Assembly: GCA_902589175.1 (NCBI GenBank)
Contig: CACIRX010000001.1
Location: forward strand, 516-64,515
Length of the DNA stretch: 64,000 nt
DNA from: an uncultured Pelagibacteraceae bacterium
GTDB taxonomy: Bacteria; Pseudomonadota; Alphaproteobacteria; Pelagibacterales; AG-422-B15
Direction of reading: 5' to 3'
This document shows, one piece after another, positions 3,105 through 59,679 of the stretch (positions within the stretch are counted from its first letter, which is position 1; every line of letters starts with the position of its first letter). The notes under the pieces are model-generated. The model searched no databases. It saw only the letters and a program-made list of their open reading frames with translations, and was not told the origin of the DNA. The position numbers and the translations under genes were made by a program.

Positions 3105-3929
3105 TTATCTTTTAAATTTTAAATTATATGTGAGTGTTTTAAGATATTTTGTTAATTCTTGCCGATCTTCAATATGAGATATATCGTTATATTTAATTAA
3201 ATCTCCTGAGTATATATTTATCTCTTTTCCTATTTTTTTTCTTGTTTCATGTATGTAAGTTGAATATTTCAAAGTTTGATTTTTCAATTTTGAAGCAAAG
3301 ATATGGAAAAGTAATCCATTTTTACCATCAAAATAGATTGGTAAAACATCTGTTTTTGTTTGATGAATTAATTTAGCAGGAAAATTTTTCCATTCATCAT
3401 CTTTTGCTTCTGATTTTAGACTTTTAGCTGTTGAAACACTTCCTGATGGAAATATAATCAGAGCACCTTTTCTAACTAGATGATTTTTTGCTTTTTTAGC
3501 TGTTTCTATATTCATTTTTAAATTCTTTTTTTTATCAGCGCTGAAATCAACAGGAAGTATAAACTTATTGAGTTGCGGTAAAAACTTAAGTGTTTCGTGT
3601 GTCATGATTTTAAAATCATTTCTTTCTTTTGATATTAGTGAACACAATATAAGTCCGTCTATTATTCCAAATGGATGATTTGCAATAATCATGAGTGGTC
3701 CAGATCTTGGTATTTTCAAGGGAGTTAAAGATTTATTCACAACTTTAATTTTAAGAAGTTGAATAATATCATTCCAAAAATTTATTGGTTCACTAGATTT
3801 TAGAGAGTAGTTTTTGTAAATATTCTCAAGTTTTCTTTTGCCTGTTAAGTTCTCAATCAATTTGATAATTAATCTCTGAGCAATGTTGTGCTCAGCTTTA
3901 GAAGCATAAGAAAAATCTATTTTACTCAT
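3105..3929 (-). CDS. Lysophospholipid (PlsC-type) acyltransferase family protein
   Basis: Has the HX4D acyltransferase motif NHPFGIIDG and a downstream IFPSGSVS block. The substrate is not inferable. Confidence 0.6.
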   Translation of the reverse strand: MSKIDFSYASKAEHNIAQRLIIKLIENLTGKRKLENIYKNYSLKSSEPINFWNDIIQLLKIKVVNKSLTPLKIPRSGPLMIIANHPFGIIDGLILCSLISKERNDFKIMTHETLKFLPQLNKFILPVDFSADKKKNLKMNIETAKKAKNHLVRKGALIIFPSGSVSTAKSLKSEAKDDEWKNFPAKLIHQTKTDVLPIYFDGKNGLLFHIFASKLKNQTLKYSTYIHETRKKIGKEINIYSGDLIKYNDISHIEDRQELTKYLKTLTYNLKFKR

Positions 3930-3933
3930 TTTA

Positions 3934-4554
3934 TTAGTATTCTACTGGGATTGGATCTAAGCTTCTCCAAAAATACCAAGTTGCAACTGATCTGTAAGGA
4001 ATCCATTTTTTTGACATTTTTAAGGCTTGCTCTCTATCAATAGGATAGTCAATGTCATAGCATTTGCTAATCCCTTTTATTAGTCCTAAATCATCTACTG
4101 GAAAAATATCAGGTCTACAAAGATTGAAAATTAAAAACATTTCTGCTGTCCATCTCCCTATGCCTTTAACTTTAATGAGCTCATTTATTATAGCTTCATC
4201 ACTATAATTATTCCATTTCTTAGTATTTATTTCTTTGTTTATAAAACTTTTAGAGAGCGATTTTAAGTAAGTAATTTTCTGCCGCGAAAGACCACAGGAT
4301 TTAAGTGACATATGATGCAATTTAATTGTATTCTCAGGGTTAACCTTCTTTATTTTTTTTTCAAATCTATTCCAAACTGCTTGAGCCGCCATAACAGAGA
4401 TCTGTTGTCCTACTATAGAACGAGCTAATGTATAAAAAGGATCTGATTTTGAATAGAGAAAATCATACTTATAATTATTAATAATTTTTCCAAGCTTTCT
4501 ATCTTTTTTAATAAGATGTTTTTTTGCTTTTTCCCAAAAAACAGGTTTTTCCAT
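3934..4554 (-). CDS. HhH-GPD DNA glycosylase (DNA-3-methyladenine glycosylase II family)
   Basis: Has the helix-hairpin-helix block VKGIGRWTAEMFLIF followed by the catalytic Asp context FPVDDLGLIKG. Confidence 0.75.
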   Translation of the reverse strand: MEKPVFWEKAKKHLIKKDRKLGKIINNYKYDFLYSKSDPFYTLARSIVGQQISVMAAQAVWNRFEKKIKKVNPENTIKLHHMSLKSCGLSRQKITYLKSLSKSFINKEINTKKWNNYSDEAIINELIKVKGIGRWTAEMFLIFNLCRPDIFPVDDLGLIKGISKCYDIDYPIDREQALKMSKKWIPYRSVATWYFWRSLDPIPVEY

Positions 4555-7159: not shown

Positions 7160-7234
7160 GGGCACGTAGCTCAGTGGTAGAGCATCACGTTGACATCGTG
7201 GGGGTTGTTGGTTCGATCCCAACCGTGCCCACCA
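7160..7234 (+). tRNA. tRNA-Val (anticodon GAC), CCA encoded
   Basis: Hand-folded cloverleaf: acceptor GGGCACG/CGTGCCC, D stem GCTC/GAGC, anticodon stem TCACG/CGTGG with loop TTGACAT, T stem GTTGG/CCAAC with TTCGATC, then ACCA. Confidence 0.93.
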
Positions 7235-42628: not shown

Positions 42629-43507
42629 ATGTTAAAAAATTTAAACCCCAATTATGCAATTGTACTTTCAACATTATTGTGGGGTACGTGGTGGTATCCA
42701 TTAAGGCTACTTAATGAATATGCGTATAATAATGCAATTCCGCTCACTTTAAGTTTCACTATTGCTGGGTTATTTTTATTATTTTTTTCATACAAAAATA
42801 TATCAAAATTAACTAATCGAAATTTAATTCTTACAATAGTCGCAGCTTCAGCAGGAGCGGCTGCAATGTGTCTTTATAATGAAGGTTTAATTAGAGGTAA
42901 TGTTGCAAGAGTATTAATCTTTTTTTATTTAACAGCTGTATGGAGCACTTTAATTGAAATTATTTTTCTAAGAGCGGCCTTAAACATTTATAGGTTTTTT
43001 TCAATTTCTTCAGGTTTTATAGGTCTGTTTATTATAACTGGGTTGGATCAAGGAAATTTTATGCCTAGCACACTTGCAGATCTGTTTGGAATTCTCTCAG
43101 GATTTCTCTGGTCAATCTGTGCAACACTCATAAGAATAAATGAGGAACTTGATGTAAATTTCGGTACTTCAGTTTTTATTTTAATTGGGGGTCTTTTTGT
43201 TGTTATTGCAACATTCTTACCGGATGGGCAAATACTTTCAGGATTTAACTATGATATTTTAAAGAATACTATTTTGATAATTTTAATATTCGCATTTATC
43301 TGGTTATTGCCAGGTTACTGGCTTGTCACCTATGGTCAGGATCAAGTTGATCCAGGACGCGCGGGGATCCTATTAATGTTCGAAGTTGTTATTGGCGTTA
43401 TATCTGCCTATCTGCTTGCAAATGAAATAATCTCGATTAGAGAGTTTATTGGTGCAATATTCGTAATGAGCGCACCATTAATCGAGATCTATTCAGTAAA
43501 AAAATAA
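42629..43507 (+). CDS. DMT-superfamily (EamA-like) transporter
   Basis: About ten hydrophobic segments over 292 aa, the size of a duplicated EamA protein. The substrate is unknown. Confidence 0.65.
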   Translation: MLKNLNPNYAIVLSTLLWGTWWYPLRLLNEYAYNNAIPLTLSFTIAGLFLLFFSYKNISKLTNRNLILTIVAASAGAAAMCLYNEGLIRGNVARVLIFFYLTAVWSTLIEIIFLRAALNIYRFFSISSGFIGLFIITGLDQGNFMPSTLADLFGILSGFLWSICATLIRINEELDVNFGTSVFILIGGLFVVIATFLPDGQILSGFNYDILKNTILIILIFAFIWLLPGYWLVTYGQDQVDPGRAGILLMFEVVIGVISAYLLANEIISIREFIGAIFVMSAPLIEIYSVKK

Positions 43508-43622
43508 TTAAATCAGACATTTATCTAATTAATTATGTAACATAATTTAATTTTTTTTTATGTGGAAGCACTTGCATATATATGTTTCAATTATAATGAA
43601 AGATATAAATTAGGAGATTAAA

Positions 43623-44639
43623 ATGAATAAATTTTTTAAAAAATCTGCAATTGGAATATTTTTAGCAGGTTTTGCAGTTATTTTTGCAGTTAGTTGCGAC
43701 AGGAATCAGGAAGTAGCTGATTGTGGCACAATTACTGTCGCAGAAATGAATTGGGCATCAGCTGAAATGTTTGCTCATGTAGATAAAATAGTATTAGAAA
43801 ATGGGTATGGTTGTAATGTTGAACTTGTACCCGGCGATACTATGCCAACAGCAACATCAATGATGGAAAAAGGTGAGCCGGATGTAGCTCCTGAACTCTG
43901 GATTAATTCAGTTCGTATAGCTCTAGATAATGCAGTAGGTGAGGGTCGTTTGCATTATGCAGCTGAGGTACTGTCTGACACTGGTGAAGAAGGGTGGTGG
44001 ATTCCTCAGTACATGGCTGATGCAAATCCTGATATCCAAACGGTTTATGACGTTATAGAGCGCCCTGAACTTTTCCCTCATCCGGAAGGTGGAGATGGAG
44101 CAATTTATACATGTCCATCAGGCTGGAACTGTCAAATTAGTACCGGAAATCTCTTTAAAGCTTATGATATGGAAGCAAAAGGATGGAGACTAGTTGATCC
44201 TGGATCAGGTGGTGCATTAGCTGGTGCTATCGGTGAAGCATATAATAAAGAAGAGGGATGGCTAGGATACTATTGGGCTCCTACAGCAGTTCTTGGCAAA
44301 TATCCACTTAAGAAACTAAGCTTTGGTGTTGAACACAGTAAAGAAGAGTGGGACACTTGTACTTCTCAAGACGGATGTGCAGATCCAAAACCTAACGCAT
44401 GGGTTGTTTCTGAAGTATACACTGTTGTAACTGATAACTTTAAAAATAGTTCTGATCTTGGAATGGAATACATTTCAAAGAGAGCACTTCCAAACAGCAC
44501 TGTTAATGCTTTATTAGCTTGGAAAGATGACAATCAAGCATCTGGCGAAGACACAGCTATACATTTTCTGAAAAACTATACAGAATGGCACAGCTGGGTT
44601 GACGGTAATGCGAAAGCTAAAATTGAAGCAGCGTTATAA
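43623..44639 (+). CDS. proX: Glycine betaine/quaternary-amine ABC transporter substrate-binding protein (OpuAC/ProX family)
   Basis: Has a lipoprotein-type signal (FAVSC). Aromatic-rich blocks (MNWASAEM, GWWIPQYM, LGYYWAP) are typical of betaine-binding boxes. An AGGAG Shine-Dalgarno precedes it, and proW-proV follow. Confidence 0.8.
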   Translation: MNKFFKKSAIGIFLAGFAVIFAVSCDRNQEVADCGTITVAEMNWASAEMFAHVDKIVLENGYGCNVELVPGDTMPTATSMMEKGEPDVAPELWINSVRIALDNAVGEGRLHYAAEVLSDTGEEGWWIPQYMADANPDIQTVYDVIERPELFPHPEGGDGAIYTCPSGWNCQISTGNLFKAYDMEAKGWRLVDPGSGGALAGAIGEAYNKEEGWLGYYWAPTAVLGKYPLKKLSFGVEHSKEEWDTCTSQDGCADPKPNAWVVSEVYTVVTDNFKNSSDLGMEYISKRALPNSTVNALLAWKDDNQASGEDTAIHFLKNYTEWHSWVDGNAKAKIEAAL

Positions 44640-44655
44640 TTAAAAAAATAATATT

Positions 44656-44679
44656 GCGGACTATAGAAATATAGTCCGC
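44656..44679 (+). promoter_or_regulatory. Strong intercistronic stem-loop between proX and proW
   Basis: A perfect 10-bp stem GCGGACTATA / TATAGTCCGC closed by a GAAA tetraloop. There is no T-run. The hairpin ends 8 nt before the proW ATG. Confidence 0.7.
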
Positions 44680-44687
44680 ATATCTAT

Positions 44688-45584
44688 ATGAACTTTACCG
44701 AATTTTTTATTTCATTTCCTGAAATGAGTAAGGAGAGTCTTCGCCTATTTAAGAAGTCTCTTGATGGCGCTTACCGAAACTTTTCACGTGAATATGGCGA
44801 TACAATTGAAGCGGTTTTTGATCCAGTGCTTTATTTCTTAGTATGGTTTGAAAAAATACTACAAAATTCTCCATGGCCTGTCGTAATAATCGTTTTCTTA
44901 TTATTGATTTATTATGGAAGTAGAAGCATCGCTCTAACTATTTCATCTTTAATTGCTTTTTTATTAATTGGATATTTTGGAATGTGGGATGATACGATGT
45001 CCACAGTCAGTATTATTGGTGTTTGCACACTAATGTCTATCGGCCTAGGTATACCAATTGGCATATTAATGTCAGGATCTGATAGGGCGAGAGCCGCAAT
45101 TACTCCAATTTTAGATATTATGCAAACGATGCCAAGTTTTGTGTATCTCATTCCAGTTGTTATGTTATTGGGTATTGGTAAAATTCCTGGTTTACTTGCA
45201 GTTATAATCTATGCAATCCCGCCAATAATTCGACTTACTGATCTTGGTATTAGAGAAGTTAATAAAGAAGTTTTAGAAGCCGCAGATGCATTTGGTGCAA
45301 ATAGAACTCAAAAATTATTTAGAGTACAGCTTCCATTAGCTTTACCAACAATTTTCGCTGGTATTAATCAAACAATAATGATGGCACTTGCAATGGTAGT
45401 TATTGCTTCAATGATTGGGGTTAAGGGATTGGGGCAACCAGTCTTAAAAGCCATCACCAATCAATATTTTACAATGGGCCTTCTCAATGGTTTGGCTATT
45501 GTAGCTTTGGCGATCATATTTGACAGGGTTTCTCAGTCATTTGGCAAAAGAATGCAGCAATATAGGGCTGGCGCAAATGAGTGA
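44688..45584 (+). CDS. proW: Glycine betaine ABC transporter permease
   Basis: Has a BPD-transport inner-membrane component pattern, including the EAADAFGANRTQKLFRVQLPLALP (EAA loop). Confidence 0.88.
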   Translation: MNFTEFFISFPEMSKESLRLFKKSLDGAYRNFSREYGDTIEAVFDPVLYFLVWFEKILQNSPWPVVIIVFLLLIYYGSRSIALTISSLIAFLLIGYFGMWDDTMSTVSIIGVCTLMSIGLGIPIGILMSGSDRARAAITPILDIMQTMPSFVYLIPVVMLLGIGKIPGLLAVIIYAIPPIIRLTDLGIREVNKEVLEAADAFGANRTQKLFRVQLPLALPTIFAGINQTIMMALAMVVIASMIGVKGLGQPVLKAITNQYFTMGLLNGLAIVALAIIFDRVSQSFGKRMQQYRAGANE

Positions 45585-46602
45585 GATAAAGATTAAGATA
45601 GAAAATTTGTATAAAATTTTTGGATCAAGACCAAGAGAGTACACAGACATAGTTAGAGATGGTGTTGATAAAGACGAGTTATTATCAAAATATAATCATG
45701 TTCTTGGGTTGGATAATATTTCTCTAGATATCAAGGAGCATTCAATACAAGTTGTAATGGGATTATCAGGGTCAGGAAAATCTACTTTGATAAGACACAT
45801 TAATAGATTGATTGAGCCAACCGAGGGAACGGTCACAGTTGATGGAGAGGATATTACTAAACTTAATAAAATGGATCTTCTAGAGTTTAGAAGAAATAAA
45901 ACAGGGATGGTTTTTCAACGCTTTGCACTATTTCCTCATCAAAATATATTAGACAATGTCCAGTTTGGATTGAGCATAAAAAATCTAGATAAGTCAGACT
46001 CTATAGAAAGAGCAATGTACTGGATCGAAAAAGTTGGTTTAACCGGTTTTGAAAATAAATTCCCAAATCAATTGTCAGGAGGAATGCAGCAAAGAGTAGG
46101 TTTAGCTAGGGCGTTAGCTACTGATCCAGATATATTGCTAATGGACGAAGCCTTTAGTGCGCTTGATCCATTAATAAGAACTGATATGCAGGACCAATTA
46201 CTGGACTTACAAAAGAATTTAAATAAAACAATTATGTTCATAACTCATGACCTCGATGAGGCACTAAAATTAGGCGACCGAATAGCTATACTCAATGGCG
46301 GAAAACTTGTTCAAGATGGAAATGCAGAGGAAATTCTTTTAAAACCCGCTGATCAATATGTGGCAAATTTTGTTAAGGATGTTAATCGTATAAAGGTTTT
46401 AAAAATCAAGACAATTCTTGACCAAGGAGGTGAACGAGCAAATTCTAATCCAACTGTAAACGTAAATGATAGTATTGAAAATTGCTTGCCGGCAATACTT
46501 GAAAGTCAATCCGGTCTTAACGTAATTGATGAGAAAAACAATTTTGTTGGCTCAGTATCAAAAAACAAAATTATAGATATTTTGCAAAAATCTAAGGATT
46601 AA
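45577..46602 (+). CDS. proV: Glycine betaine ABC transporter ATP-binding protein (with C-terminal CBS-like region)
   Basis: Has Walker A GLSGSGKST, the signature LSGGMQQRVGLARAL and Walker B ILLMDEAFSALD. The start is at ATG 45577 (MSEIKIK), overlapping proW by 8 nt. Confidence 0.9.
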   Translation: MSEIKIKIENLYKIFGSRPREYTDIVRDGVDKDELLSKYNHVLGLDNISLDIKEHSIQVVMGLSGSGKSTLIRHINRLIEPTEGTVTVDGEDITKLNKMDLLEFRRNKTGMVFQRFALFPHQNILDNVQFGLSIKNLDKSDSIERAMYWIEKVGLTGFENKFPNQLSGGMQQRVGLARALATDPDILLMDEAFSALDPLIRTDMQDQLLDLQKNLNKTIMFITHDLDEALKLGDRIAILNGGKLVQDGNAEEILLKPADQYVANFVKDVNRIKVLKIKTILDQGGERANSNPTVNVNDSIENCLPAILESQSGLNVIDEKNNFVGSVSKNKIIDILQKSKD

Positions 46603-46617
46603 TTCTACTAAATTTTT

Positions 46618-49026
46618 TTATTGCCTTAAATTTTTACCGGTTTGGTCATAACAAGCATTATCAACAATTGAGGCATTATAAAACTCTCCATTTATTTCAA
46701 CTTGCAAAACTTCTTTGGATTTTAATAAATCATTGTTCAAGTATGCAAAAGCAATACTTTTTTGCACATAGTGGCCGAAGCCTCCAGATGTTACATATCC
46801 GATACATACTTCATTCTGCATAACAGCTTCATTGCTAGTCACATCTATGTTGTCAGTTTCAATTACCAAGGAAAATAATCTGTGATTGCTATCATCTTTA
46901 ACTGCAGCGTCTTTACCAATAAAATCTTTATCCCAATTTATAAATGCAGAAAGGCCAGTTTCTTTTGGAGTATAGTCAGGTCTAAAATCTAGTGTCCATG
47001 CGCCCCAATTTTTTTCTAGTCTCATAGACATCAAAGCTCTTCCGCCAAAAGGTTTAATGTTGAATTCTTCTCCTGCATCCTCAATAGCCTCATACAGCTT
47101 GATTTGATAGTGTGGAGCTACATATATTTCATATCCCAATTCTCCAGTAAATGACAACCGGTTGACTAATGCAGGAACACCAGCAACAAACATTTGTCTA
47201 GAATCTCTAAATTTAAATGACTCATTAGAAACATCTTCTCTTACCAATAATTGCAGTAAATTTCTAGACTTTGGGCCAGAAATAGCAAGGCCGTGATAAT
47301 CATCAGATCTGTTTTTATAAATGACCTCATATTGATCTAGATGTTGTTCAAACCATCGTCGATGCATTTCCTGAGCGGCACCAGATCCATAAACCATAAA
47401 ATGATTTTCACTAATACACGAAACTGTAAGGTCCCCATATAATTTACCTTTTTTAGATAGCATTGGACTTAGTGCTATGCGTCCAACTTTAGGTATTCTA
47501 CCTGCCAAAATATAATCCAAAAATTTTCTTGAGTCTTTTCCCTTAAATTCATGTTTAGAAAAATTAGCAATCTCTGTTACTCCAACGTTTTCTCTTACAT
47601 TTTTTACTTCATTTGAAACATAGTTATGGGATCGAGAGCGCTTGATAGTTGGTTCTTCGTAAGCATCATCAGGATTATCAGCAAACCATAGAACATTTTC
47701 GAGTCCAAAGCTGTCACCCATAACTGCTCCCATGTTAACGAAGCGATCATATAAAGCTGTAGTTTTTTGTTTCCTTCCTTTTGGCAAAGTCTCATTTGGA
47801 AATGTCATAATAAATCTTCGTTCATAATTTTCAGATGATTTAATTGTTCCATAATGTGGAGATGCATAATCACCAAACCGTGCGACATCCATCGCCCAAA
47901 CATCTATGGAAGGTTCACCATCAATAATCCATTCTGCAATACATTTGCCAACACCTCCTCCTTGACAGAACCCGGCCATAACACCGACTGCTACCCAATA
48001 ATTTCTCATGCCTGGAACTGGTCCAATGAGAGGATTTCCATCAGGACCAAATGTAAAAGGGCCGTTAACAATATTTTTAATTCCTGCTTTTTCCAAAGCT
48101 GGCATTCTCTCAAAACCAATGACTAATCGATCTTGAATATTTTCTAATTTTGGTTCCAACAGTTCTTGTCCAAAATCTAATGGGGTTCCCTGAACTTTCC
48201 AAGGAGTAGACTTATGTTCATATGTGCCAAGCAACATGCCTTGTCCTTCTTGTCTAAAATAGATATTACCATCAAAATCAGTTCCAACTGGTAGCCTTGT
48301 TCCCTTAGGCATCGCTGCTATTTCTGGAATTGTATCAGTGATTAAATAATGATGCTCCATTGGCTGTACAGGCAAATTTAATCCAGCAAGTTTACTGACC
48401 TCTCTTGCCCAAAGTCCTGCAGCATTAATTACAATTTCTGTATGAATATTGCCCTTATCAGTAAACACATCCCAGGTTCCATCTTCTCTTTGCTTAGTGT
48501 CTTTAACCTCAGTATTTGTGTAATAGTTAGCGCCATGAACTTTTGCAGATTTTGCAAATGCATATGTGACACCTGATGGATCTACTTCTCCATCGATCGG
48601 ATCCCACAAAGCTGAAATATATTTATTGGGATCGATAAGAGGATTTTTTTTTGCAACCTCCTCTAATGAGATAAACTCTTGATCAAGACCCATATATCTG
48701 GCTTTTGTTCTTTCTCTTTTAAGATAATCAGACCAAACTTCATTAGAGGCTAAATAAAACCCTCCACTTGGTTTAAAGCCAACTGAATGACCTGAAGTCT
48801 CTTCAATTTCCTTGTACAAGTTTATTGTATATGCCATCAGTCTGGATATGTTTGGATCTGAAGAAATGACATGAACGTTTCCTGCGGCATGCCATGAGGA
48901 TCCTGCTGTTAATTCTTTTCGCTCAAGGAGAACGCAGTCCTTCACCCCAAACTTTGCTAAATGGAAAAGAATAGAGCAACCTACAACTCCCCCACCAATA
49001 ACAACAACTTTAGCATGAGTTTGCAT
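46618..49026 (-). CDS. Dimethylglycine/sarcosine dehydrogenase family (FAD DAO domain + GcvT-type folate domain)
   Basis: Has VVVIGGGVVGCS at the N-terminus and an aminomethyltransferase-like C-terminal half (RLSFTGELGYEIY) over 802 aa. Confidence 0.85.
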   Translation of the reverse strand: MQTHAKVVVIGGGVVGCSILFHLAKFGVKDCVLLERKELTAGSSWHAAGNVHVISSDPNISRLMAYTINLYKEIEETSGHSVGFKPSGGFYLASNEVWSDYLKRERTKARYMGLDQEFISLEEVAKKNPLIDPNKYISALWDPIDGEVDPSGVTYAFAKSAKVHGANYYTNTEVKDTKQREDGTWDVFTDKGNIHTEIVINAAGLWAREVSKLAGLNLPVQPMEHHYLITDTIPEIAAMPKGTRLPVGTDFDGNIYFRQEGQGMLLGTYEHKSTPWKVQGTPLDFGQELLEPKLENIQDRLVIGFERMPALEKAGIKNIVNGPFTFGPDGNPLIGPVPGMRNYWVAVGVMAGFCQGGGVGKCIAEWIIDGEPSIDVWAMDVARFGDYASPHYGTIKSSENYERRFIMTFPNETLPKGRKQKTTALYDRFVNMGAVMGDSFGLENVLWFADNPDDAYEEPTIKRSRSHNYVSNEVKNVRENVGVTEIANFSKHEFKGKDSRKFLDYILAGRIPKVGRIALSPMLSKKGKLYGDLTVSCISENHFMVYGSGAAQEMHRRWFEQHLDQYEVIYKNRSDDYHGLAISGPKSRNLLQLLVREDVSNESFKFRDSRQMFVAGVPALVNRLSFTGELGYEIYVAPHYQIKLYEAIEDAGEEFNIKPFGGRALMSMRLEKNWGAWTLDFRPDYTPKETGLSAFINWDKDFIGKDAAVKDDSNHRLFSLVIETDNIDVTSNEAVMQNEVCIGYVTSGGFGHYVQKSIAFAYLNNDLLKSKEVLQVEINGEFYNASIVDNACYDQTGKNLRQ

Positions 49027-49028
49027 TC

Positions 49029-50069
49029 TTAAGGTGTGAATTCTTTATTTACCTGCTTAAGAGTTTCGTCTGTTCCATGGTGAAAATGTTTTCTCATGTC
49101 CGGCATATATTTCATCGAAATTGGTTTTTTACCAACTGCAACTGACATTTCTCTCACGTGATGTGCTTCGGCGCCACAACAAATTCCAATAAAGTTGATA
49201 TTTTTTTCCATACAGTCTGCAGCAAATTTAGCCATTTCAAAACGATTACAAAAAAGATTATCCAAGGCTACAGGAAATGCATTATTTCCAGGAATACAAT
49301 CACATCCATCATCAGAAATATTTAAAAAACCAGGTTCCTTTTCTGTTGTTCGATAAGGCACTGGCAATCCAGCAACATGGCAAGATACTTTATCTCTTAC
49401 TTTTTCTAGAAGTTTCATAGTCATATCTGGCCCTCTATAACAGTTTAAACCAACGACATTTGCACCCAAGTCTTCCATCATTTTACATGCATCTTCAGGT
49501 GTATGTCCTTCTCTTGTCTTATCTCCCCTGGGTATCGCAAAATTTGTAACTGCAATCATGCCTTCATCTTTGATTGCTTTTAGAGCAATTTTCATTTCCT
49601 CAGTCCAATTAATTGTCTCAGCGACAATAAAATCAACTCCCGCTTCCTTTGCCCACGCCACTTGTTCCTCATACATTTTCTGACATTGAATAAGAGATTG
49701 TTTATCATTTGGATCATAAATATTTGTATTTGCTACATCTCCACAAACCATAAGATCTAAATCTTTATATTCATTAGCTGCATCTTTTGCAATTTGAAGA
49801 GCATTTTTCTGCAAAGACTCTAATAAATGTTCTTTCCCAATTATTCTTAATTTTTCTCTATGGCCATAATAAGTGAAAGCTTGGACAACATCAGATCCTG
49901 CTCTTATAAATTCTCTATGTAATTGAGTAACAACTTCTGGGTGCTCTAAAACAACTTCAGGAACAAATCCTCCTGCGGATAAGTAACCTCTTCGTTCCAT
50001 GGCGAATAAATAACCTTCAGCACAAATGATTGGTCCCTCATTTAATCTCGTTATCAGATCTTTTTTCAT
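49029..50069 (-). CDS. bhmt: Betaine-homocysteine S-methyltransferase (Hcy S-methyltransferase domain)
   Basis: Has a pterin-independent Hcy-binding barrel with Zn cysteines (GLNCYRGP, GICCGAEAHH). It lies next to a DMG dehydrogenase. Confidence 0.75.
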   Translation of the reverse strand: MKKDLITRLNEGPIICAEGYLFAMERRGYLSAGGFVPEVVLEHPEVVTQLHREFIRAGSDVVQAFTYYGHREKLRIIGKEHLLESLQKNALQIAKDAANEYKDLDLMVCGDVANTNIYDPNDKQSLIQCQKMYEEQVAWAKEAGVDFIVAETINWTEEMKIALKAIKDEGMIAVTNFAIPRGDKTREGHTPEDACKMMEDLGANVVGLNCYRGPDMTMKLLEKVRDKVSCHVAGLPVPYRTTEKEPGFLNISDDGCDCIPGNNAFPVALDNLFCNRFEMAKFAADCMEKNINFIGICCGAEAHHVREMSVAVGKKPISMKYMPDMRKHFHHGTDETLKQVNKEFTP

Positions 50070-50180
50070 GAATGCACTCCTAATTTATTCAAACAATAAA
50101 TAAAAAATTATACCTAATTTAATATTCTGTCGAATTAAAAAAATGACAAGGCTATTCTTTTTTGGAATGAATAAGCATTT

Positions 50181-51551
50181 CTAATTTGAAAACAAACGCT
50201 CATCAAGCGGATAAGTAGAAATCGTTTCGTAACCATTATTTGTTACGACACCCTGATCCTCAAGCTTGACCATGTGGTCCCCATTAACTTCACCCACCAA
50301 AGCCTCGACACAAAGAGTCAGTCCTGGTTCCAGAACAGCGTCAAAGGCATTTTTAACCAAACGGTCTGGGTAGGCGATCAATGGCCATTCGTCACACATC
50401 CCGACACCATGCATAGGTGATGAATACTTGAGCGCCTGATACTTGTCCTGCAACACGTGCAAAGAATGAGTTAAGTCTTCCATGTGGAGGCCGGGCTTGA
50501 GAAGCCTTGTGTTATAGCGAATGTGTTCTACTGCCTCTGCATAACTCTCGCGCATATTAGCTGGCGCTAAACTATCTCCAATCCACCAGGTACGACTGAG
50601 ATCTGCACAAATCCCATAGGGGCCGATCAAATCAGTATCAAAAGCAAGAATTTCGTTCTCAGATATGATCCTTGGCCCACATTCTTGAAACCATGGGTTG
50701 GTGCGTGGCCCTGAAGTAAGCAGTCTTGTCTCAATCCACTCGCCACCTCTTTTAATATTTTCTGCATGGAGTACCGCCCAAACATCATCCTCTGTCACAC
50801 CACCTTTTGGAATTTCTGCGCGTGCAAACTCCTCCATAATTGCCATCGAGCGTTCACAAGAATAAATAGAACAGCGCATTGCTCGTAATTCGTGCTCGGT
50901 TTTGATAGCTCGTGCACGTTCTGTCACTTCCTCACCGTCACAGTACTCAAGCCCTGCTCGACGGACCGCATCTAAACCTGCAGGCTGAATTTTGTCTATA
51001 CCGACTTGTGTACAACCTGGAGCGTGAGTGGCAATTAAGTCTAGTACCTCAGCTGCGAAAGCGTCAGCTGCTGGCCCAATCCGGTCACCACGGGCGAAGT
51101 AAAACATGTCCGCACCTGAGCGGTTCTCCCGAACAAGTGGATTGTATTGGGCGAGGAATGGTGCGTTTTTATAATCCCAGAGTACCATATACCCATCAGC
51201 ACAAAGCAAGCACGCCCGGAACGGATTGTGGGTGTTCCACAACTGCATATTTGTCGTGTCAGTTGCATAACGAATATTAAGGGGATCAAACATCAATAAG
51301 CCCCCATAACCCCTGGCTACAATTGCATCAGTCAAGCGTTTGTGTCTGGCTTTGCGCATCTCAGTCAGATCTGGCAATATAAGCCCTGCATCTTGCCATT
51401 CAGCATAGGCTAATGCAGTTGGGCCAATTTCGACACGATCGCCATCATTGATTGTTCCATCGCCCAGATGCACCCCCTGGCTTGGGTCTATCTTATGATT
51501 ATCGCTGTAGTAATTATTTATATTTGGTAATATTTTACGATTTATCTTCAT
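50181..51551 (-). CDS. dddP: M24-family (creatinase/prolidase fold) protein, DddP-like dimethylsulfoniopropionate lyase; compositionally foreign
   Basis: Has pita-bread metal ligands (FDTD, CADLS, MHGVG, CVEAL, KLEDQ). Long blocks match my memory of Roseobacter DddP (FDPLNIRYATD, MQLWNTHNPFRAC, GGEWIETRLLTSGPRTNPWFQECGPR). G+C is about 50-60% against about 20-40% in the flanks. Confidence 0.7.
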   Translation of the reverse strand: MKINRKILPNINNYYSDNHKIDPSQGVHLGDGTINDGDRVEIGPTALAYAEWQDAGLILPDLTEMRKARHKRLTDAIVARGYGGLLMFDPLNIRYATDTTNMQLWNTHNPFRACLLCADGYMVLWDYKNAPFLAQYNPLVRENRSGADMFYFARGDRIGPAADAFAAEVLDLIATHAPGCTQVGIDKIQPAGLDAVRRAGLEYCDGEEVTERARAIKTEHELRAMRCSIYSCERSMAIMEEFARAEIPKGGVTEDDVWAVLHAENIKRGGEWIETRLLTSGPRTNPWFQECGPRIISENEILAFDTDLIGPYGICADLSRTWWIGDSLAPANMRESYAEAVEHIRYNTRLLKPGLHMEDLTHSLHVLQDKYQALKYSSPMHGVGMCDEWPLIAYPDRLVKNAFDAVLEPGLTLCVEALVGEVNGDHMVKLEDQGVVTNNGYETISTYPLDERLFSN

Positions 51552-51559
51552 TTTATTAA

Positions 51560-52702
51560 TTAAGGATTAATTCTATTCAAATAATTTAATCTACCTACGA
51601 TCTCATCCCTATCAATATAATATCCTTGGAGGTGTCTATTACCTGAATTGGCATCGTATTCTTTTCTGCCATGCAAGACTCTTCTGTTATTAAAGCTAAA
51701 AATATCTCCAGCTTCTAATCTGAAATTGATTTCAAACATAGGGTCATGTAGCAATGAAAGAAGTTTACGATATGCTTCATAGAAGCTATCCATAACTTCA
51801 GGACTGCAATCCATTATTCCCATATAAGCAACGCTGAACCGTATATCATTAAAATCATTGTTGTGATCTAGAGTAAATATGGGTTTATGCATTACTCTAA
51901 TTGTGTTTGCGGTGTAATCTCTATTTACAAATTTTACAGGTGTATCAAGAAGAATCTTGAAATATTCAGTAAAATTTTCTTTCATATAGCTTGCAACTTT
52001 AAATCCATCTAACGCAACTGATTCACCACCTGTTGCATCGTTTATTAAACAATGAAGGAACTGGTAGCCAGGAGCAATTTCATAATATGGTAAGTCGATG
52101 TGATTTCTTAGAGCTGCAGCTGTATATGCTGAATTATTTGGATTAGGAATGTCGATTACTTCAAATGGTGTTTTAAAAAAAGTTTCTCTATGATGACTTA
52201 TATTAGATAGAACATCAAAACCTGACTCTTTTTCAGTGGGTGCATTTTTTACAATTGAAATGCCCTTATAGTGAAGTTGTTCTAACCATTTTTTTATTCC
52301 TTCATCTCCACTAATAATTTCTTGATAATCTATTTGAATATCTTCAAAATTTGATTGCATACTATTATCCCACAAAAAATAAGGTGAACTATATTTTTTC
52401 TTACTTTTCATCGTGTAACAGTTATGTCGAAGCCATTCGACGTCATAGTGACTTATATGGCCTCCTTCACTCCACTCAATCTCCAACTGTCCTTTATCAT
52501 TTATTGTAAACGCTTTTGGGTAAATATTTTCTGAAACATTTAGCAAGTTAAAGGTTCTCTCCCTTGCAGTAGGGTGAACTTCTGATGGACAATTATCCCT
52601 TAACCATAAAAAATTAAATTTACTCTGCTCACCATCACTCCAATCAATTAGAATCGATTTACCATTCTTTTTTAATGATGATATTGATGGATTCTCGTTC
52701 AT
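51560..52702 (-). CDS. Gamma-butyrobetaine hydroxylase-like Fe(II)/2-oxoglutarate dioxygenase (DUF971 + TauD fold)
   Basis: Has an N-terminal DUF971-type domain (WLRDNCPSEVHP), a facial triad context NHID ... VLHGR, and HLQGYYIDRDE at the C-terminus. It is in an operon with carnitine dehydrogenase and BKACE. Confidence 0.7.
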   Translation of the reverse strand: MNENPSISSLKKNGKSILIDWSDGEQSKFNFLWLRDNCPSEVHPTARERTFNLLNVSENIYPKAFTINDKGQLEIEWSEGGHISHYDVEWLRHNCYTMKSKKKYSSPYFLWDNSMQSNFEDIQIDYQEIISGDEGIKKWLEQLHYKGISIVKNAPTEKESGFDVLSNISHHRETFFKTPFEVIDIPNPNNSAYTAAALRNHIDLPYYEIAPGYQFLHCLINDATGGESVALDGFKVASYMKENFTEYFKILLDTPVKFVNRDYTANTIRVMHKPIFTLDHNNDFNDIRFSVAYMGIMDCSPEVMDSFYEAYRKLLSLLHDPMFEINFRLEAGDIFSFNNRRVLHGRKEYDANSGNRHLQGYYIDRDEIVGRLNYLNRINP

Positions 52703-52705
52703 ATC

Positions 52706-53680
52706 TTATTTAAATGTATTATATTTTCTGTCCCAATTCGGAAACTTACCTTTTTGATTCTTATTTAAAGTTTTCATAATTTCAATCAAAAACAAATCTC
52801 TTTGTTTTTCTAATTCTTTAATATTGAATTTTCCTGCTTGTTTTTTTGTTCCTGAAACCATTGCTTTTTTAAGTTTGTTGGTTAATTCAGGTGCTTTCAA
52901 TTTTGTCCAAGGGAGTTTTAGTGCAGGACCAAATTGTTCCAGCATGTGTTTCATGCCAGTTTCTCCACCAGCTAAATGGAACGTTAAACAAACCCCCATA
53001 AAAGCCCATCTCAATCCAGGACCATAAACAATTGCATCATCAACTTCATCCGTTGATGCTACCCCGTCATTTATAATATGCAAGGCTTCACGCCATAACG
53101 CTTCTTGTAGTCTGTCTGAAATATATCCTTCTATTTCTTTTTGAACAATAAGTGGTCGCATTCCAATATGTTCATATAATTTTTTTAATTTTTTAACACT
53201 TATATTACTAGTTTTCTTGCCAGCTACAATCTCTACTAGAGGTAATAAGTATACAGGATTAAATGGATGACCTATTAAAACTCTCTCAGGAAATTTACAA
53301 GCCGATTGAATTTTTGATGGTAATAAGCCTGACGAACTAGATGCGATTATAACTCTCTTATCAACTAAATTATCAATTTGTTTGAGTATATTTTTTTTAA
53401 TCTTTTCGTTTTCTGGTGCATTCTCTTGAACAAAAGTTGTATCCTTCAATGCACTAGGTAATTTTGAATAGACCTTAAGATTTCTTAATGAGGCATTTCT
53501 ATTCAAACCGATTTTCTTTAAGCTTTTAAAAGCAGTTCGAACATTTATTTTTAGCTGCTCACGTGAAACACTATTAGGGTCATATGCTTTTACAGTATAA
53601 CCTTTAGCTAGAAATCTTGCAGCCCAGCCTGCGCCAATTACTCCAGTACCCACAATAGTGATGACTTTATTTTGTTTCAA
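52706..53680 (-). CDS. L-carnitine dehydrogenase (3-hydroxyacyl-CoA dehydrogenase family)
   Basis: Contains [27 protein letters not shown], a 3HCDH N+C domain pattern and about 320 aa, as in carnitine dehydrogenases. It sits beside a BKACE gene. Confidence 0.7.
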
Positions 53681-54561
53681 ACTTTAAGCCCAAGTTTTTT
53701 TCTGGCTTCATCTGGCCCCATCACATTTGCACCAAGATTATTAATTATTGTCGTCGCTTTTTCAACAAGTTGACCGTTTGAAGCGTATACACCTTTTTCA
53801 AGATATAGGTTGTCTTCAAGACCAACTCTAACATTGCCTCCCAAAAGAACCGCTTGAGCAACCATCGGCATTTGATGAACCCCAATTCCAAAAGCTGCCC
53901 AGTTACTGCCCGATGGTAGCATGTCTACCATGTTTTTCATTGAACTGGTATTAGCCGGTGCCCCATAGGGAATGCCAAGACAAATTTGAAATAGAGGAGG
54001 GCTGTCAAGCAACCCCTCATCGTACATTTGATTTGCAAACCACATATGCCCTGTATCAAAAACTTCTAACTCCGGTTTTACGCCTAATTCTTGTATTCTT
54101 TTTGCACCAATTCTTAATTGTTCAGGAGTACTAACATAAATCATGTTGCTATCACCAAAATTAAGAGTTCCACAATCAAGGGAACATATATCTGGTAATA
54201 TTTCTTCAACGTGACTTAGTCTTTCAATCGCATTAACAAAATCAGTATTAGGTCCGAACTTTAATAGATCATCCTCAGGTCCAATTTCTATATCACCGCC
54301 CATACCACTAGTAAGATTTATTATGACATTTGTGCCACTATCTTTTATGCGGCTCACAACCTCTTTATAAAGCTCATCGTCTCTTGATCCCTTTCCTGTA
54401 TTTAAATCTCTGACATGGATATGCGCTATAGCAGCTCCAGCTGACGCTGCTTCAATTGCTGCATTAGCAATTTGCTCTGGCGTCACCGGTATGTTTGGAT
54501 GTTTATTGACTGTATCTCCTGATCCAGTAACTGCACATGAAATAATGACGTCTCTGTTCAT
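53677..54561 (-). CDS. BKACE (beta-keto acid cleavage enzyme, DUF849) family, probable 3-dehydrocarnitine cleavage enzyme
   Basis: Has a TIM-barrel BKACE pattern ([27 protein letters not shown]). Adjacency to a carnitine dehydrogenase suggests the substrate. Confidence 0.7.
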
Positions 54562-58036: not shown

Positions 58037-59131
58037 ATGAAGCTAGATTTTGACTCAAAAGAATTAAGAGTATTTGATAATGAGGAAATTTTTAAAATAC
58101 ATCCCTTGTGGATACGGGAACGATCAACTGAAAAAGGAGAAGTTGATCAAAATTCTTTTCAAAGATTATATGATCCTGAAAAGATTAAACCAGATTTGCA
58201 AATAAAGAATGCTAAGCTACTAGCAGACAACAAAATGCAAGTAGAATTTTCTGATAACCATAGTGCAACTTATTGTTTAGATAAATTAATAACAGAAATT
58301 ACAAGATCAAATGTCCTACCACCAAAGATTTACTGGGATAAAAATGATGCTGAGTTAAAAAAATTTAGTTTTGCCTATGGAGCAAACGAAAGTCAGCAAT
58401 TGTTTGAAATTTTAAAATTTTATCATCAGTATGGTTACGTTGTAGTCGAAGATTTGCCAGCTAAGGACGGAGAAGTTATAAAATTTGCTGAAAAAATTGG
58501 GTTTATTCGAGAAACTAATTTTGGAAAGCTATTTAATGTGAGATCACAAAAACAACCTAATGATTTGGCTTATACATCCATCGAATTAGAGTCGCATACT
58601 GATAATCCCTACAGAAAACCAGTACCATCAATTCAATTTTTATTTTGTATTGAAAACAGTTGCAAAGGTGGAGACTCCACAGTTGTAGATGGTTTCAAAG
58701 TTGCAGAGGATCTAAAAAAAGAAAATCCACAAGCTTTTAATATCCTAGTAAATACATTAATAAATTATAAATTTGAAGATAATGATGCTATTTTAGAAAA
58801 AACTGGAAAAATTATAAAATTAAGCGCTAGAGGAGAACTCAAACAAATAAAATATAGTAATAGATTAGACTTTGTATTTTACGATGAGCCAAAGGTTTTA
58901 GAAGAATTTTATGCTGCTAAAAGAGTTATGCATCAAATGATCAATTCAGATAAATATATATTACAATTTCATTTAGAGCCTGGTAACTTATTAATTATGA
59001 ATAATTACAGAACTTTACATGGAAGACGAAGCTACAATACATCTGAAGGAAGTCGGTGGCTTCAAGGGCTGTATATTGACCATGACTCTGCCGAAAGTAA
59101 ATATAAACTCCTCTCCAAGGAAGTAGAATGA
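58037..59131 (+). CDS. Second gamma-butyrobetaine-hydroxylase-like Fe(II)/2OG dioxygenase; TmpA-like candidate
   Basis: Has DUF971-like and TauD folds and the triad SHTD ... TLHGRR. It shows close BBOX-like blocks (KGGDSTVVDGFKVAEDLKKENPQAFNIL). It is coupled by an ATGA overlap to an HD-domain gene. Confidence 0.65.
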   Translation: MKLDFDSKELRVFDNEEIFKIHPLWIRERSTEKGEVDQNSFQRLYDPEKIKPDLQIKNAKLLADNKMQVEFSDNHSATYCLDKLITEITRSNVLPPKIYWDKNDAELKKFSFAYGANESQQLFEILKFYHQYGYVVVEDLPAKDGEVIKFAEKIGFIRETNFGKLFNVRSQKQPNDLAYTSIELESHTDNPYRKPVPSIQFLFCIENSCKGGDSTVVDGFKVAEDLKKENPQAFNILVNTLINYKFEDNDAILEKTGKIIKLSARGELKQIKYSNRLDFVFYDEPKVLEEFYAAKRVMHQMINSDKYILQFHLEPGNLLIMNNYRTLHGRRSYNTSEGSRWLQGLYIDHDSAESKYKLLSKEVE

Positions 59132-59679
59132 AGACAGTCAAGTTTACCGAAATGAAAAAAGGATCAAAAGAAGATTATGAACTTTTGGCTGAATATGAAA
59201 AAAACTATGTAAATGAACTTCCGGATCGAATTTTAGAATCATTAAAAAACTTAGATAATTCAGTGGACGGGTACCAAGTAACAAGACTTGAGCATTCTTT
59301 GCAATCAGCAACCAGAGCTGAAAAAGATGGGGCAGATGAAGAAATGATTGTTGCTACATTGTTGCATGATATAGGAGACAGTCTTGCTCCATACAATCAC
59401 AGTCAATTCATAGCTGCTGTTTTAAGACCGTATGTTTCTGAAAAGGTTCATTGGATTATGTTGCATCATGGGCTTTTTCAAGAATATTATTATGCTCATC
59501 ATTTAGGTAAAGATAGAAATTCACGAGATAAATTTAAGGATCACCCATACTATCAAGATGCGGTCGACTTTTGTGAAAAGTGGGATCAAAAATCTTTTGA
59601 TCCTAATTATGAATCCTTCCCGTTAGATCATTTTGAACCAATGGTGAGAAGATTATTTTCTAAAGAGCCAAATTTTTAA
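59128..59679 (+). CDS. HD-domain protein with a PhnZ/TmpB-like ligand pattern (candidate mixed-valent diiron oxygenase)
   Basis: A 183-aa protein with the ordered ligand pattern H (LEHSL), HD (LLHDIG), H (YNHSQ), H (IMLHHG), D (WDQKSFD). The ATG at 59128 overlaps the stop of the dioxygenase gene. Confidence 0.6.
   Translation: MKTVKFTEMKKGSKEDYELLAEYEKNYVNELPDRILESLKNLDNSVDGYQVTRLEHSLQSATRAEKDGADEEMIVATLLHDIGDSLAPYNHSQFIAAVLRPYVSEKVHWIMLHHGLFQEYYYAHHLGKDRNSRDKFKDHPYYQDAVDFCEKWDQKSFDPNYESFPLDHFEPMVRRLFSKEPNF

Follow-up and report, generated by a model that had tools for sequence, protein, structure and literature searches.

How does a gene of clearly higher G+C (GC) content come to lie among the AT-rich genes of a marine bacterium, what does it encode and by which route did it arrive? 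The question is raised by dddP, an open reading frame (ORF) of 456 aa on the minus strand (50181..51551) of the 64,000-nt stretch of DNA analysed here, which is referred to as the window at its full length; loci designated L001 and so forth are comparison loci from other genomes and metagenome contigs. The ORF encodes a DddP-family M24 metalloenzyme and is the sole compositionally foreign gene of the window. Its host is a SAR11 (Pelagibacteraceae) bacterium, and the DddP enzyme family releases dimethyl sulfide (DMS), a climate-active gas. SAR11 is the most abundant bacterial group of the surface ocean, and which of its lineages release DMS, and with which enzyme, feeds straight into estimates of the marine sulfur cycle.

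The answer that is very probably correct is that a genuine DddP was imported into SAR11, with a two-step insertion, the replacement of its start codon and a recombinational spread. A first-pass annotation of this DNA had described a single gene captured at the end of a carnitine operon; dddP has indeed turned out to be the only compositionally foreign gene, whereas the single-gene, terminal-gene model gives way to a two-step history that involves a three-gene block. The case is well documented and instructive, though not surprising in kind: it is a clean, datable example of a streamlined genome that gains a gene with no mobile elements at the site.

The compositional contrast itself is real and far beyond chance. 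The GC content of dddP is 0.471 (0.571, 0.416 and 0.427 at the first, second and third codon positions, GC1 to GC3), against means of 0.332 for GC and 0.222 for GC3 over the window ORFs. Compared with the 53 other long ORFs of the window, the GC3 of dddP stands at 0.425 vs 0.219 (sd 0.025, maximum 0.272; z=8.4), and its total GC deviates by z=3.7. In bins of 60 nt, the GC content steps from 0.17 to 0.45 at about 51520-51580 on the 5' edge, and from 0.40 through 0.28 to 0.13 at about 50260-50080 on the 3' edge. The abrupt shift limited to this ORF, first claimed from five hand counts (31, 37, 22, 24 and 12 G+C per 60 nt, all exact on recount), is thus confirmed, and the sliding-window GC, GC3 and codon-usage analysis gave a significant deviation, so that it does not refute horizontal gene transfer. 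Among the codons that had been singled out as enriched, CGC (19.7 per 1000 vs 1.3 in the window ORFs, a 15-fold excess), CTG (11.0 vs 3.3) and GCC (17.5 vs 5.4) are so, while GGC is hardly commoner (15.4 vs 11.2). Two shadow ORFs reported inside dddP, 50912..51280 on the plus strand and 51041..51289 on the minus strand, both exist; they carry no sign of coding and are expected by-products of a low stop-codon density in GC-richer DNA. An alternative-frame ORF of 82 aa is kept at the equivalent place in L009 (L009:10242-10490).

DddP in SAR11 is already known at the survey level, and its arrival route appears to be undescribed. DddP (K16953) has been reported in 27 of 135 complete Pelagibacter genomes (2026 preprint 10.64898/2026.04.03.716430), some DddP sequences of a polar metagenome survey were assigned to Pelagibacterales (PMC8520302), and SAR11 is said to host dmdA and dddK as well as dddP (Landa et al. 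2019, as cited in PMC12992908). Transfer of dddP between domains, from alphaproteobacteria to fungi, is established (PMC4304780). A search of the available literature found nothing on the origin of SAR11 dddP, its insertion history, the change of its start codon or its linkage to DMGDH. DddK, the cupin lyase of dimethylsulfoniopropionate (DMSP) known from SAR11 strain HTCC1062 (Sun et al. 2016, cited after PMC8520302), belongs to the same host group and has the same nominal reaction as the window DddP, DMSP to DMS and acrylate, and 99% of polar DddK sequences are from Pelagibacterales (PMC8520302). However, its cupin fold is unrelated to the M24 fold of DddP, and dddP is, in SAR11, an imported and patchily present gene.

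With regard to distribution, nine genomes of uncultured Pelagibacteraceae (SAR11), single-cell or metagenome-assembled, proved to carry dddP in a scan with one genome per species, with protein identities of 94-100%. The SAR11 DddP protein cluster has 543 member sequences, one of which occurs on 86 contigs; dddP of SAR11 is a genuine gene that is under selection and has a wide distribution. Where the JGI/IMG annotation names the protein, it calls it 'Xaa-Pro aminopeptidase', a label that hides SAR11 dddP from name-based surveys of DMSP genes. Conversely, a native SAR11 look-alike that scores 346 bits against the DddP model could be miscounted as DddP in KEGG-style annotation, and the label and the look-alike together can distort both the gene counts and the taxonomic assignments of such surveys.

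The protein and its likely reaction

The window protein scores 787.2 bits against the NCBIfam equivalog for DddP, NF043017 (cutoff 600), over model positions 1-442 of 443, and the L009 and L168 copies score 784 bits. Creatinase, the Xaa-Pro peptidases and DoeA share its pita-bread fold, as reflected in the Pfam matches to Peptidase_M24 and, slightly under its cutoff, to Creatinase_N, but the scores there are far lower: the runner-up NCBIfam family, the ectoine hydrolase DoeA, reaches 36 bits (cutoff 575), and the prolidase match in a PDB search about 33 bits. The solved DddPs 4RZY, 4S00, 4S01 and 4B28 align without gaps at 654-674 bits, the best of them, 4RZY, with 64.7% identity over 442 ungapped residues (674 bits; window residues 12-453 against 2-443), so that the N-terminal domain and the pita-bread domain are both present and collinear with the solved enzyme. 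The metal ligands of DddP, in the numbering of RdDddP, are Asp295, Asp297, Asp307, His371, Glu406 and Glu421, and Tyr366 and Asp377 have been proposed as catalytic residues that are invariant in DddP (PMC4108388). All six ligands are kept in the window protein (D305, D307, D317, H381, E416 and E431), including the equivalent of Asp297, which is absent from M24 peptidases, and so are the candidate catalytic residues Y376 and D387, with the motif GMCDEWP.

In a neighbour-joining tree (85 sequences, 100 bootstraps, rooted on the SAR11 M24 paralogue), the window protein falls among 83 DddP sequences, apart from the paralogue outgroup, and its subclade is sister to one with loci of Ruegeria, Roseovarius and Roseobacter, the genera with characterised DddPs. 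The DddP-like M24 call of the first-pass annotation is therefore upheld by the family score, the 4RZY alignment, the eight conserved residues and the tree placement, and the homology and phylogeny check against other M24 subfamilies places the protein inside the DddP clade. The window ORF is thus predicted to encode a genuine DddP-family enzyme with an M24 fold and a binuclear metal centre, and on homology grounds its membership in the creatinases or the Xaa-Pro peptidases can be regarded as excluded. It shares the curated family NF043017 with the characterised DddPs of Ruegeria lacuscaerulensis, Roseobacter denitrificans and Roseovarius nubinhibens (4RZY, 4S00, 4S01 and 4B28), but differs from them in its moderate identity (64.7% to 4RZY), in belonging to a separate subclade (bootstrap 99), in a ten-residue N-terminal extension and in the setting of its gene among betaine-catabolism genes. 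Judged by family, its most likely reaction would be the cleavage of DMSP to DMS and acrylate.

The gene neighbourhood suggests a second reading of the function, in which the physiological task of the enzymes in this subclade is not, or not only, DMSP cleavage, but acts on another zwitterionic osmolyte or on a betaine or dimethylglycine intermediate, with the lyase activity as a side reaction. In HIMB11, SAR116, L167 and other donor-type genomes, dddP belongs to a cluster that encodes a LysR/GcvA-type regulator, an MttB-family methyltransferase, DMGDH, in some cases a GbdR-like regulator, DddP, a ThrC-like protein and glycine C-acetyltransferase (Kbl). The GbdR-like gene is found at six loci, of the Roseobacter group and Amaricoccus, and the donor-type DMGDH is 62-64% identical to that of SAR11. 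DMGDH adjoins dddP in 9 of the 15 donor-type loci (2 of the other 6 lack enough upstream sequence), as opposed to none of the 58 loci of the canonical clade (61-65% identity). In SAR11, dddP is next to BHMT-DMGDH in both of its known contexts, and a preprint deems the activity of DddP on DMSP probably promiscuous (10.1101/168930). Set against this, the window protein is well above the DddP cutoff and keeps every proposed DMSP-binding or catalytic residue, and the evidence of gene neighbourhood is circumstantial. DMSP is structurally analogous to glycine betaine, and the DMSP importers known so far are reported to be multifunctional, among them a SAR11 uptake system of the betaine type (PMC10030565), so the co-location may reflect shared uptake or regulation, which is the simpler explanation of the link. 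A different principal substrate is accordingly conceivable but rather unlikely.

A native SAR11 M24 paralogue, the look-alike mentioned above, lies in the same type of cluster and likewise speaks for the second reading. It is an AT-rich gene (GC3 0.19-0.22) for about 382 aa that follows DMGDH, for example at L093:6225-7370, and it is also found in L092, L094, L095, L100, L104, L106, L119-L128 and others. Like the window DddP, it has the M24 fold, a BHMT-DMGDH neighbourhood and all eight metal and catalytic residues. Unlike it, it lacks the first ~50 DddP residues, is only 36-37% identical (49% over a fragment at L152), is AT-rich and stays at 346 bits against NF043017, under the cutoff of 600. 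The lineages nearest to the dddP carriers (L087, L089, L090 and L009) have a different gene at its usual place. The L152 fragment (positions 42-644), a DddP-like C-terminal portion upstream of BHMT, was considered as a second import and rejected, as it is the native AT-rich paralogue, 64% identical to that of L093.

The tie of this DddP subclade to genes of betaine and dimethylglycine catabolism, in both the donor-type genomes and SAR11, is the most useful new lead of the analysis, and it gives a concrete starting point for tests of what DddP does natively. A tentative extension, again with the odds clearly against it, is that DddP-like M24 enzymes would be a previously unrecognised part of glycine betaine/dimethylglycine catabolism, acting on a compound of the betaine pathway or on a DMSP analogue with nitrogen. 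If true, counting dddP as DMS potential would overstate the lyase capacity of SAR11 and Roseobacter. As a separate observation, the whole MttB-DMGDH-(GbdR-like)-dddP-ThrC-like-Kbl cluster is highly conserved in L010, L011, L013-L018 and L167 (for example L011:3771-14033), where DMGDH has 91-96% protein identity to that of HIMB11. These loci are labelled Roseobacter-group, Amaricoccus, SAR116 and a gammaproteobacterial metagenome-assembled genome (MAG), which suggests that the cluster itself may move between marine lineages.

Two insertion sites and a replaced start codon

One of the two SAR11 contexts of dddP is that of isolate AG-914-G18 (L009), where the gene, 89% identical at the DNA level to the window copy, has a Rieske-type oxygenase gene on one side and BHMT-DMGDH on the other, with a ProXVW-type transporter upstream. 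In metagenomic loci anchored on BHMT, the common SAR11 arrangement is Rieske-BHMT-DMGDH without dddP. Three such loci (L088, L089 and L090) present the L009 context minus dddP, and the Rieske protein of L089 is 99% identical to that of L009. Alignment with these empty sites places the left junction of the insert a few bases beyond the native Rieske stop codon and the right junction immediately before TTGACAGA…TTAGGTAA, a conserved segment of the native spacer that L009 and the window have both kept upstream of BHMT. From these alignments, the primary insert consists of dddP with a leader of ~20 nt and a tail of ~45 nt. In the window, the 111 nt before BHMT (GC 0.23) are made up of this tail, ~43 nt after the dddP stop (50138..50180, minus strand), which is present in L009 and absent from L088-L090, and of the native Rieske-BHMT spacer (50070..50137, minus strand), homologous to the empty-site spacers (TTGACAGAG...TTAGGTAA), both with approximate boundaries. 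Hexamers that resemble a promoter lie in the native spacer, as does a GGAG before the BHMT ATG; a promoter-like TTGTCA-17-AATATT at 50149..50121 is a consensus match only. As the comparison of these loci shows, the first step was a single-gene insertion, in which dddP alone entered the short Rieske-BHMT spacer of a native SAR11 betaine locus, upstream of the BHMT promoter-like region. Between the window and L009, comparable values of synonymous divergence (dS) were obtained for dddP (0.53), BHMT (0.64) and DMGDH (0.64), as would fit a single acquisition with subsequent co-divergence.

Close SAR11 relatives differ in what lies upstream of BHMT, as illustrated by L087:1716-6823, whose BHMT is 97% identical to that of the window and has neither Rieske nor dddP upstream, but two ORFs (998 and 418 aa) in divergent orientation. 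A possible leftover of Rieske 3' sequence upstream of the window dddP amounts to a mere 7/9 match and was discarded as no evidence.

The window presents a second context. The same-strand order is BKACE, a carnitine-dehydrogenase-like gene (CDH), a GBBH-like dioxygenase gene (51560..52702, minus strand), dddP, a BHMT-like methyltransferase gene (49029..50069, minus strand) and a DMGDH-like gene (46618..49026, minus strand), the last of which is convergent with the ATPase gene of a betaine/proline-type ABC transporter (45520..46602, plus strand). At empty sites with a GBBH 97% identical to that of the window (L161 and L162, the latter from single-cell genome GCA_902561485.1), BKACE-CDH-GBBH is directly convergent with the ABC ATPase gene with an overlap of 11 nt; in L164-L166 (GBBH 68% identical) the two are convergent with an overlap of 4 nt. 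All three of dddP, BHMT and DMGDH are absent from the GBBH/ABC ATPase site in these five loci. The homology of the window to the empty sites breaks at the GBBH stop and returns after the DMGDH stop, at a second copy of the GBBH end. Junction alignments with L161 and L162 delimit an inserted dddP-BHMT-DMGDH block of 4,953 nt (46608..51560, minus strand), flanked by an exact 15-nt direct repeat, TAGAATTAATCCTTA on the coding strand. Its left copy (51561..51575, minus strand) comprises the last codons and the stop of GBBH, and its right copy (46593..46607, minus strand) lies just past the DMGDH stop, where homology to the empty sites resumes, and restores the 3' end of the ABC ATPase gene. Owing to the duplication, neither of the two overlapping convergent genes has lost its 3' end. 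Two matches to TAGAATTAATCCTTA are found in the window, vs 0.05 expected by chance even with one mismatch allowed; the repeat is present in two copies in the majority of window-type loci (L002-L007 and L082-L084) and in a single copy in the empty site L161.

These junctions show the second step: in the window lineage, the dddP-BHMT-DMGDH block came to lie in the GBBH/ABC ATPase overlap, with a 15-nt target duplication. Homology between the window and L009 extends from ~19 nt before the old start codon to within 7 nt past the DMGDH stop, and no second copy of the block genes was found within the 64-kb window. The synteny comparison with other Pelagibacterales that the first-pass annotation had proposed thus yielded empty sites and two dddP contexts, and it overturns several of that annotation's expectations. 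What was inserted at GBBH was not a single gene but the block, as the empty sites lack all three genes, and the single-gene event lay instead between Rieske and BHMT (L009 against L088-L090). Nor is dddP the terminal gene of an operon, since BHMT and DMGDH, which arrived with it, come next on the same strand. With regard to the genes upstream of dddP, the GBBH match is incomplete in two window-type contigs (304 and 308 of 380 residues in L083:4516-5367 and L085:4459-5382, respectively), and BKACE is incomplete as well in L083; this could be due to assembly error or to decay of the upstream genes on which the expression of dddP would rest.

The two events could also be read in the reverse order, with GBBH-dddP-BHMT-DMGDH as the primary arrangement and the Rieske-dddP-BHMT-DMGDH locus of L009 as derived. 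Such an order would fit the recovery of one L009-type locus as against at least 13 window-type loci, and the three genes are about equally diverged, so that age alone gives no order. It is nonetheless improbable in view of the locus structures: Rieske-BHMT-DMGDH without dddP is widespread in SAR11, L009 differs from L088-L090 by dddP alone with the native spacer kept on the BHMT side, and relatives whose GBBH identity ranges from 68% to 97% have GBBH and the ABC ATPase gene in direct convergence, with neither BHMT nor DMGDH there. Furthermore, the donor ATG is kept in L009 and lost in the window.

This loss concerns the 5' end of the gene, where the insertion history with L009 as the primary type would have left a third mark. 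Donor-type genes and the L009 copy start with MN[V/I/T]HYSD (ATG AAC/AAT xxT CAY TAY AGT GAT). In the window, the codon homologous to that ATG is codon 11, an ATA for isoleucine (51519..51521, minus strand), within AAT ATA AAT AAT TAC TAC AGC GAT, as compared with GAT ATG AAT ATT CAC TAT AGT GAT in L009 and ATG AAC/AAT GTT CAT TAC AGT/AGC GAT/GAC in HIMB11 and SAR116. The ATA is, by this alignment, evidently a decayed donor start codon, and the sole in-frame canonical start is an ATG at 51551, ten codons upstream of it. The resulting N-terminal extension, MKINRKILPN (51522..51551, minus strand), is AT-rich (GC 0.20) and begins at this new ATG; its codons 1-4 are matched neither in donor-type genes nor in L009, and codons 5-10 overlie the ~19-nt leader common to the window and L009 (from ~51540). 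The comparison thus shows the third step, a start-codon replacement in which the donor ATG decayed to ATA, so that translation must begin at the new ATG. Alignment with the solved DddPs begins at window residue 12 for 4RZY and at residue 9 for 4B28, in the latter case inside the N-terminal tag of 4B28. The first ~17 codons are AT-rich, as had been noted (GC 0.22, vs 0.49 for codons 18-60), but homology to DddP starts at codon 11-12 and not at codon 18, the AT-richness of codons 11-17 being due simply to the amino acids encoded, N, Y, S and D. As had been suspected, the ORF contains the 5' junction, although at codon 10/11 rather than around codon 17.

With regard to expression, the 8 nt that had been counted between the upstream stop and the dddP ATG are correct, and the claim that dddP has no promoter of its own agrees with what was found: the gene abuts the GBBH-like gene on the same strand with no room for one, there is no convincing promoter in the 8-nt gap, and a promoter scan around dddP returned weak consensus matches only. 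This lack of room implies that dddP expression most likely depends on read-through from the BKACE-CDH-GBBH unit. A candidate intrinsic terminator after dddP was rejected, as it consists of a weak 5-bp stem within the last codons.

Foreign origin of dddP

Horizontal acquisition of dddP, as claimed in the first-pass annotation, is borne out by its composition, by the empty sites, by its nesting in the tree and by the direction of its substitutions. SAR11 copies have a GC of 0.47-0.48 and a GC3 of 0.42-0.44, with flanks at 0.34-0.355; in their relatives from the Roseobacter group, SAR116 and other genomes, dddP has a GC of 0.56-0.67 and a GC3 of 0.58-0.89, with flanks at 0.51-0.64. The excess over the flanks is therefore ~13 points in SAR11 vs at most ~7 points in the GC-richer genomes, so that protein composition accounts for part of it only. 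In the tree, the SAR11 copies are monophyletic (bootstrap 99) and sister to the metagenomic L168 copy (100), and both fall inside a 26-member clade (bootstrap 99) of GC-richer genomes, which includes Ruegeria sp., HIMB11, Marinovum, Tropicibacter, Cognatiyoonia, Cognatishimia, Pelagimonas, Amaricoccus, SAR116 and a gammaproteobacterial MAG. When polarised at sites where the outgroups agree, changes from GC to AT outnumber those from AT to GC throughout: the counts are 24:1 for the window branch and 21:2 for that of L009, while the SAR11 stem has 15:5 and the stem that SAR11 and L168 have in common has 57:4. The gene is thus part-way through amelioration, still shifting towards the base composition of SAR11. 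The ratio of nonsynonymous to synonymous substitution rates (dN/dS) between the window and L009 is 0.049, which implies that dddP has been maintained by selection between the two SAR11 lineages and is under strong purifying selection. Its presence is polymorphic among close SAR11 relatives, with intact empty sites at both places (L088-L090 for Rieske/BHMT, L161 and L162 for GBBH/ABC), and it occupies two contexts rather than one locus with one composition in all relatives. In outline, an ancestor of a subset of SAR11 would have taken dddP from a subclade represented in the Roseobacter group, SAR116 and a few other GC-richer marine genomes. In short, dddP is horizontally acquired and is the only compositionally foreign gene of its locus.

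That no transfer took place, and that amino-acid composition and selection raised the GC content of a vertically inherited gene, is very improbable: dddP is up to ~7 GC points above its flanks in other genomes too, and its GC1 and GC2 are at the high end for the window, yet synonymous third positions deviate the most (z=8.4), empty sites occur in close relatives, the SAR11 clade is nested in GC-richer genomes and the strong GC-to-AT bias indicates that the gene is not at compositional equilibrium. An assembly chimera, or contamination of the single-cell genome with Roseobacter DNA, has next to nothing in its favour beyond the facts that single-cell and metagenome assemblies can be chimeric and that the nearest named dddP relatives are of the Roseobacter group, since eight single-cell genomes and five metagenome contigs independent of one another have the same junctions, the GC3 of SAR11 dddP is intermediate and not Roseobacter-like, and the start codon and both flanks are SAR11-specific.

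The import of a DddP into SAR11 in the steps proposed here has several points weighing against it. On the side of function, the characterised DddPs are only 61-65% identical to the window protein, the literature search found no assayed member of its subclade at 82-92% identity, the DddP of HIMB11 is known from annotation only, and the preprint cited above argues for promiscuity of the DMSP lyase activity. As regards origin, the phylogeny was built by neighbour-joining only, and bootstraps for the branching within the donor-type clade are only 41-44, so that the donor is not narrowed to one taxon. GC-rich outgroups inflate the number of G/C sites open to change and so introduce some bias into the substitution counts, which is, however, too small to explain the ratios seen. 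Neither integrase, transposase, insertion sequence nor tRNA was found beside either SAR11 dddP insertion, and the sole tRNAs of the window are at positions 7160 and 61783, so that we infer the mechanism. Within 64 kb, a moved block is not distinguishable from a copied one, and we infer the putative co-transcription of dddP with GBBH from their spacing only.

The closest sister of the SAR11 copies, at L168:1-4552, is 92% identical (GC3 0.52) and immediately follows a tRNA-Met gene, within an array made up of a GST gene, dddP with a glyoxalase gene, and a lipoprotein gene, each unit being followed by a conserved repeat of ~110 nt (1376-1487, 3415-3526 and 4275-4386). DNA of this type is also found in L169, L170, L174:5073-10600, L175 and L176, and on a related contig the neighbours of the same tRNA include a tyrosine integrase and a D5-type primase. 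Three ideas about this cassette were abandoned. L168 was taken for another AT-rich host, which was withdrawn because the core of the related contig L174 has a GC of 0.43-0.49 and its AT-rich DNA is island-like; a known RNA or an integron attC site was sought in the ~110-nt repeat, which has no Rfam match and no covariation and is absent from the SAR11 loci; and a phage vehicle was considered, with neither dddP nor the repeat present in viral contigs.

Spread within SAR11 and the wider neighbourhood

In L001-L008, the DMGDH, BHMT, dddP and GBBH genes are 97.3-99.9% identical to those of the window (at least 99.05% except for GBBH of L008), and the identity of the outer genes drops to 81-98%. 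As the genome collection holds one genome per species, the block is common to at least eight species-level lineages. The contrast is sharpest in L007, where the stretch 46600..54000 is 98.6-100% identical to the window in bins of 500 nt and the remaining flanks are at 73-90%; the backbone of L007 has 82-87% identity on one side and ~74% on the other. At a fine scale, identity of 100% stops exactly at the right 15-nt repeat (~46,590) and at ~54,000. This pattern has the signature of a recent recombinational transfer between SAR11 lineages, presumably anchored by a long stretch of homology towards GBBH, with the crossover at the short repeat or next to it. Such comparisons show a fourth step, in which the block, together with adjacent DNA, spread through SAR11 lineages by recombination.

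Homology-facilitated illegitimate recombination and gene-specific sweeps are general mechanisms in recombining bacteria. The L007 segment resembles them in having a homologous anchor of ~2.4 kb and its other end exactly at the 15-nt repeat, and in the occurrence of near-identical DNA in diverged backgrounds, although the process is read from the end-points only.

The surroundings of the block form a neighbourhood of quaternary-amine catabolism. The GBBH-like gene, the last of the native BKACE-CDH-GBBH unit, encodes a TauD-family dioxygenase (Pfam TauD and GBBH-like_N) that scores 313 bits against TIGR02409, under the cutoff of 415. Beyond DMGDH lie a convergent OpuAC-type ABC transporter, an EamA-family gene and a choline dehydrogenase gene; on the BKACE side follow genes for an aldehyde dehydrogenase, an acetoacetate-CoA ligase and a TmpA-like dioxygenase. 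The transporter segment at 43500-46000, with the OpuAC-type binding protein (43623-44639), the permease and the 5' part of the ATPase gene (45520-46602), has 74-88% identity in L001, L004 and L008, and the flanking DNA on both sides is 97-100% identical in the same loci, a pattern that looks like divergent transporter alleles exchanged by recombination. The TmpA-like gene at 58037-59131 encodes a second TauD-family dioxygenase, with TmpA (2-trimethylaminoethylphosphonate dioxygenase) as its best match (347 bits, cutoff 400). It is followed by a small ORF at 59128-59679, counterparts of which in L161 and L164 have faint MIOX/HD-domain matches, and the two may form a TmpAB-like pair.

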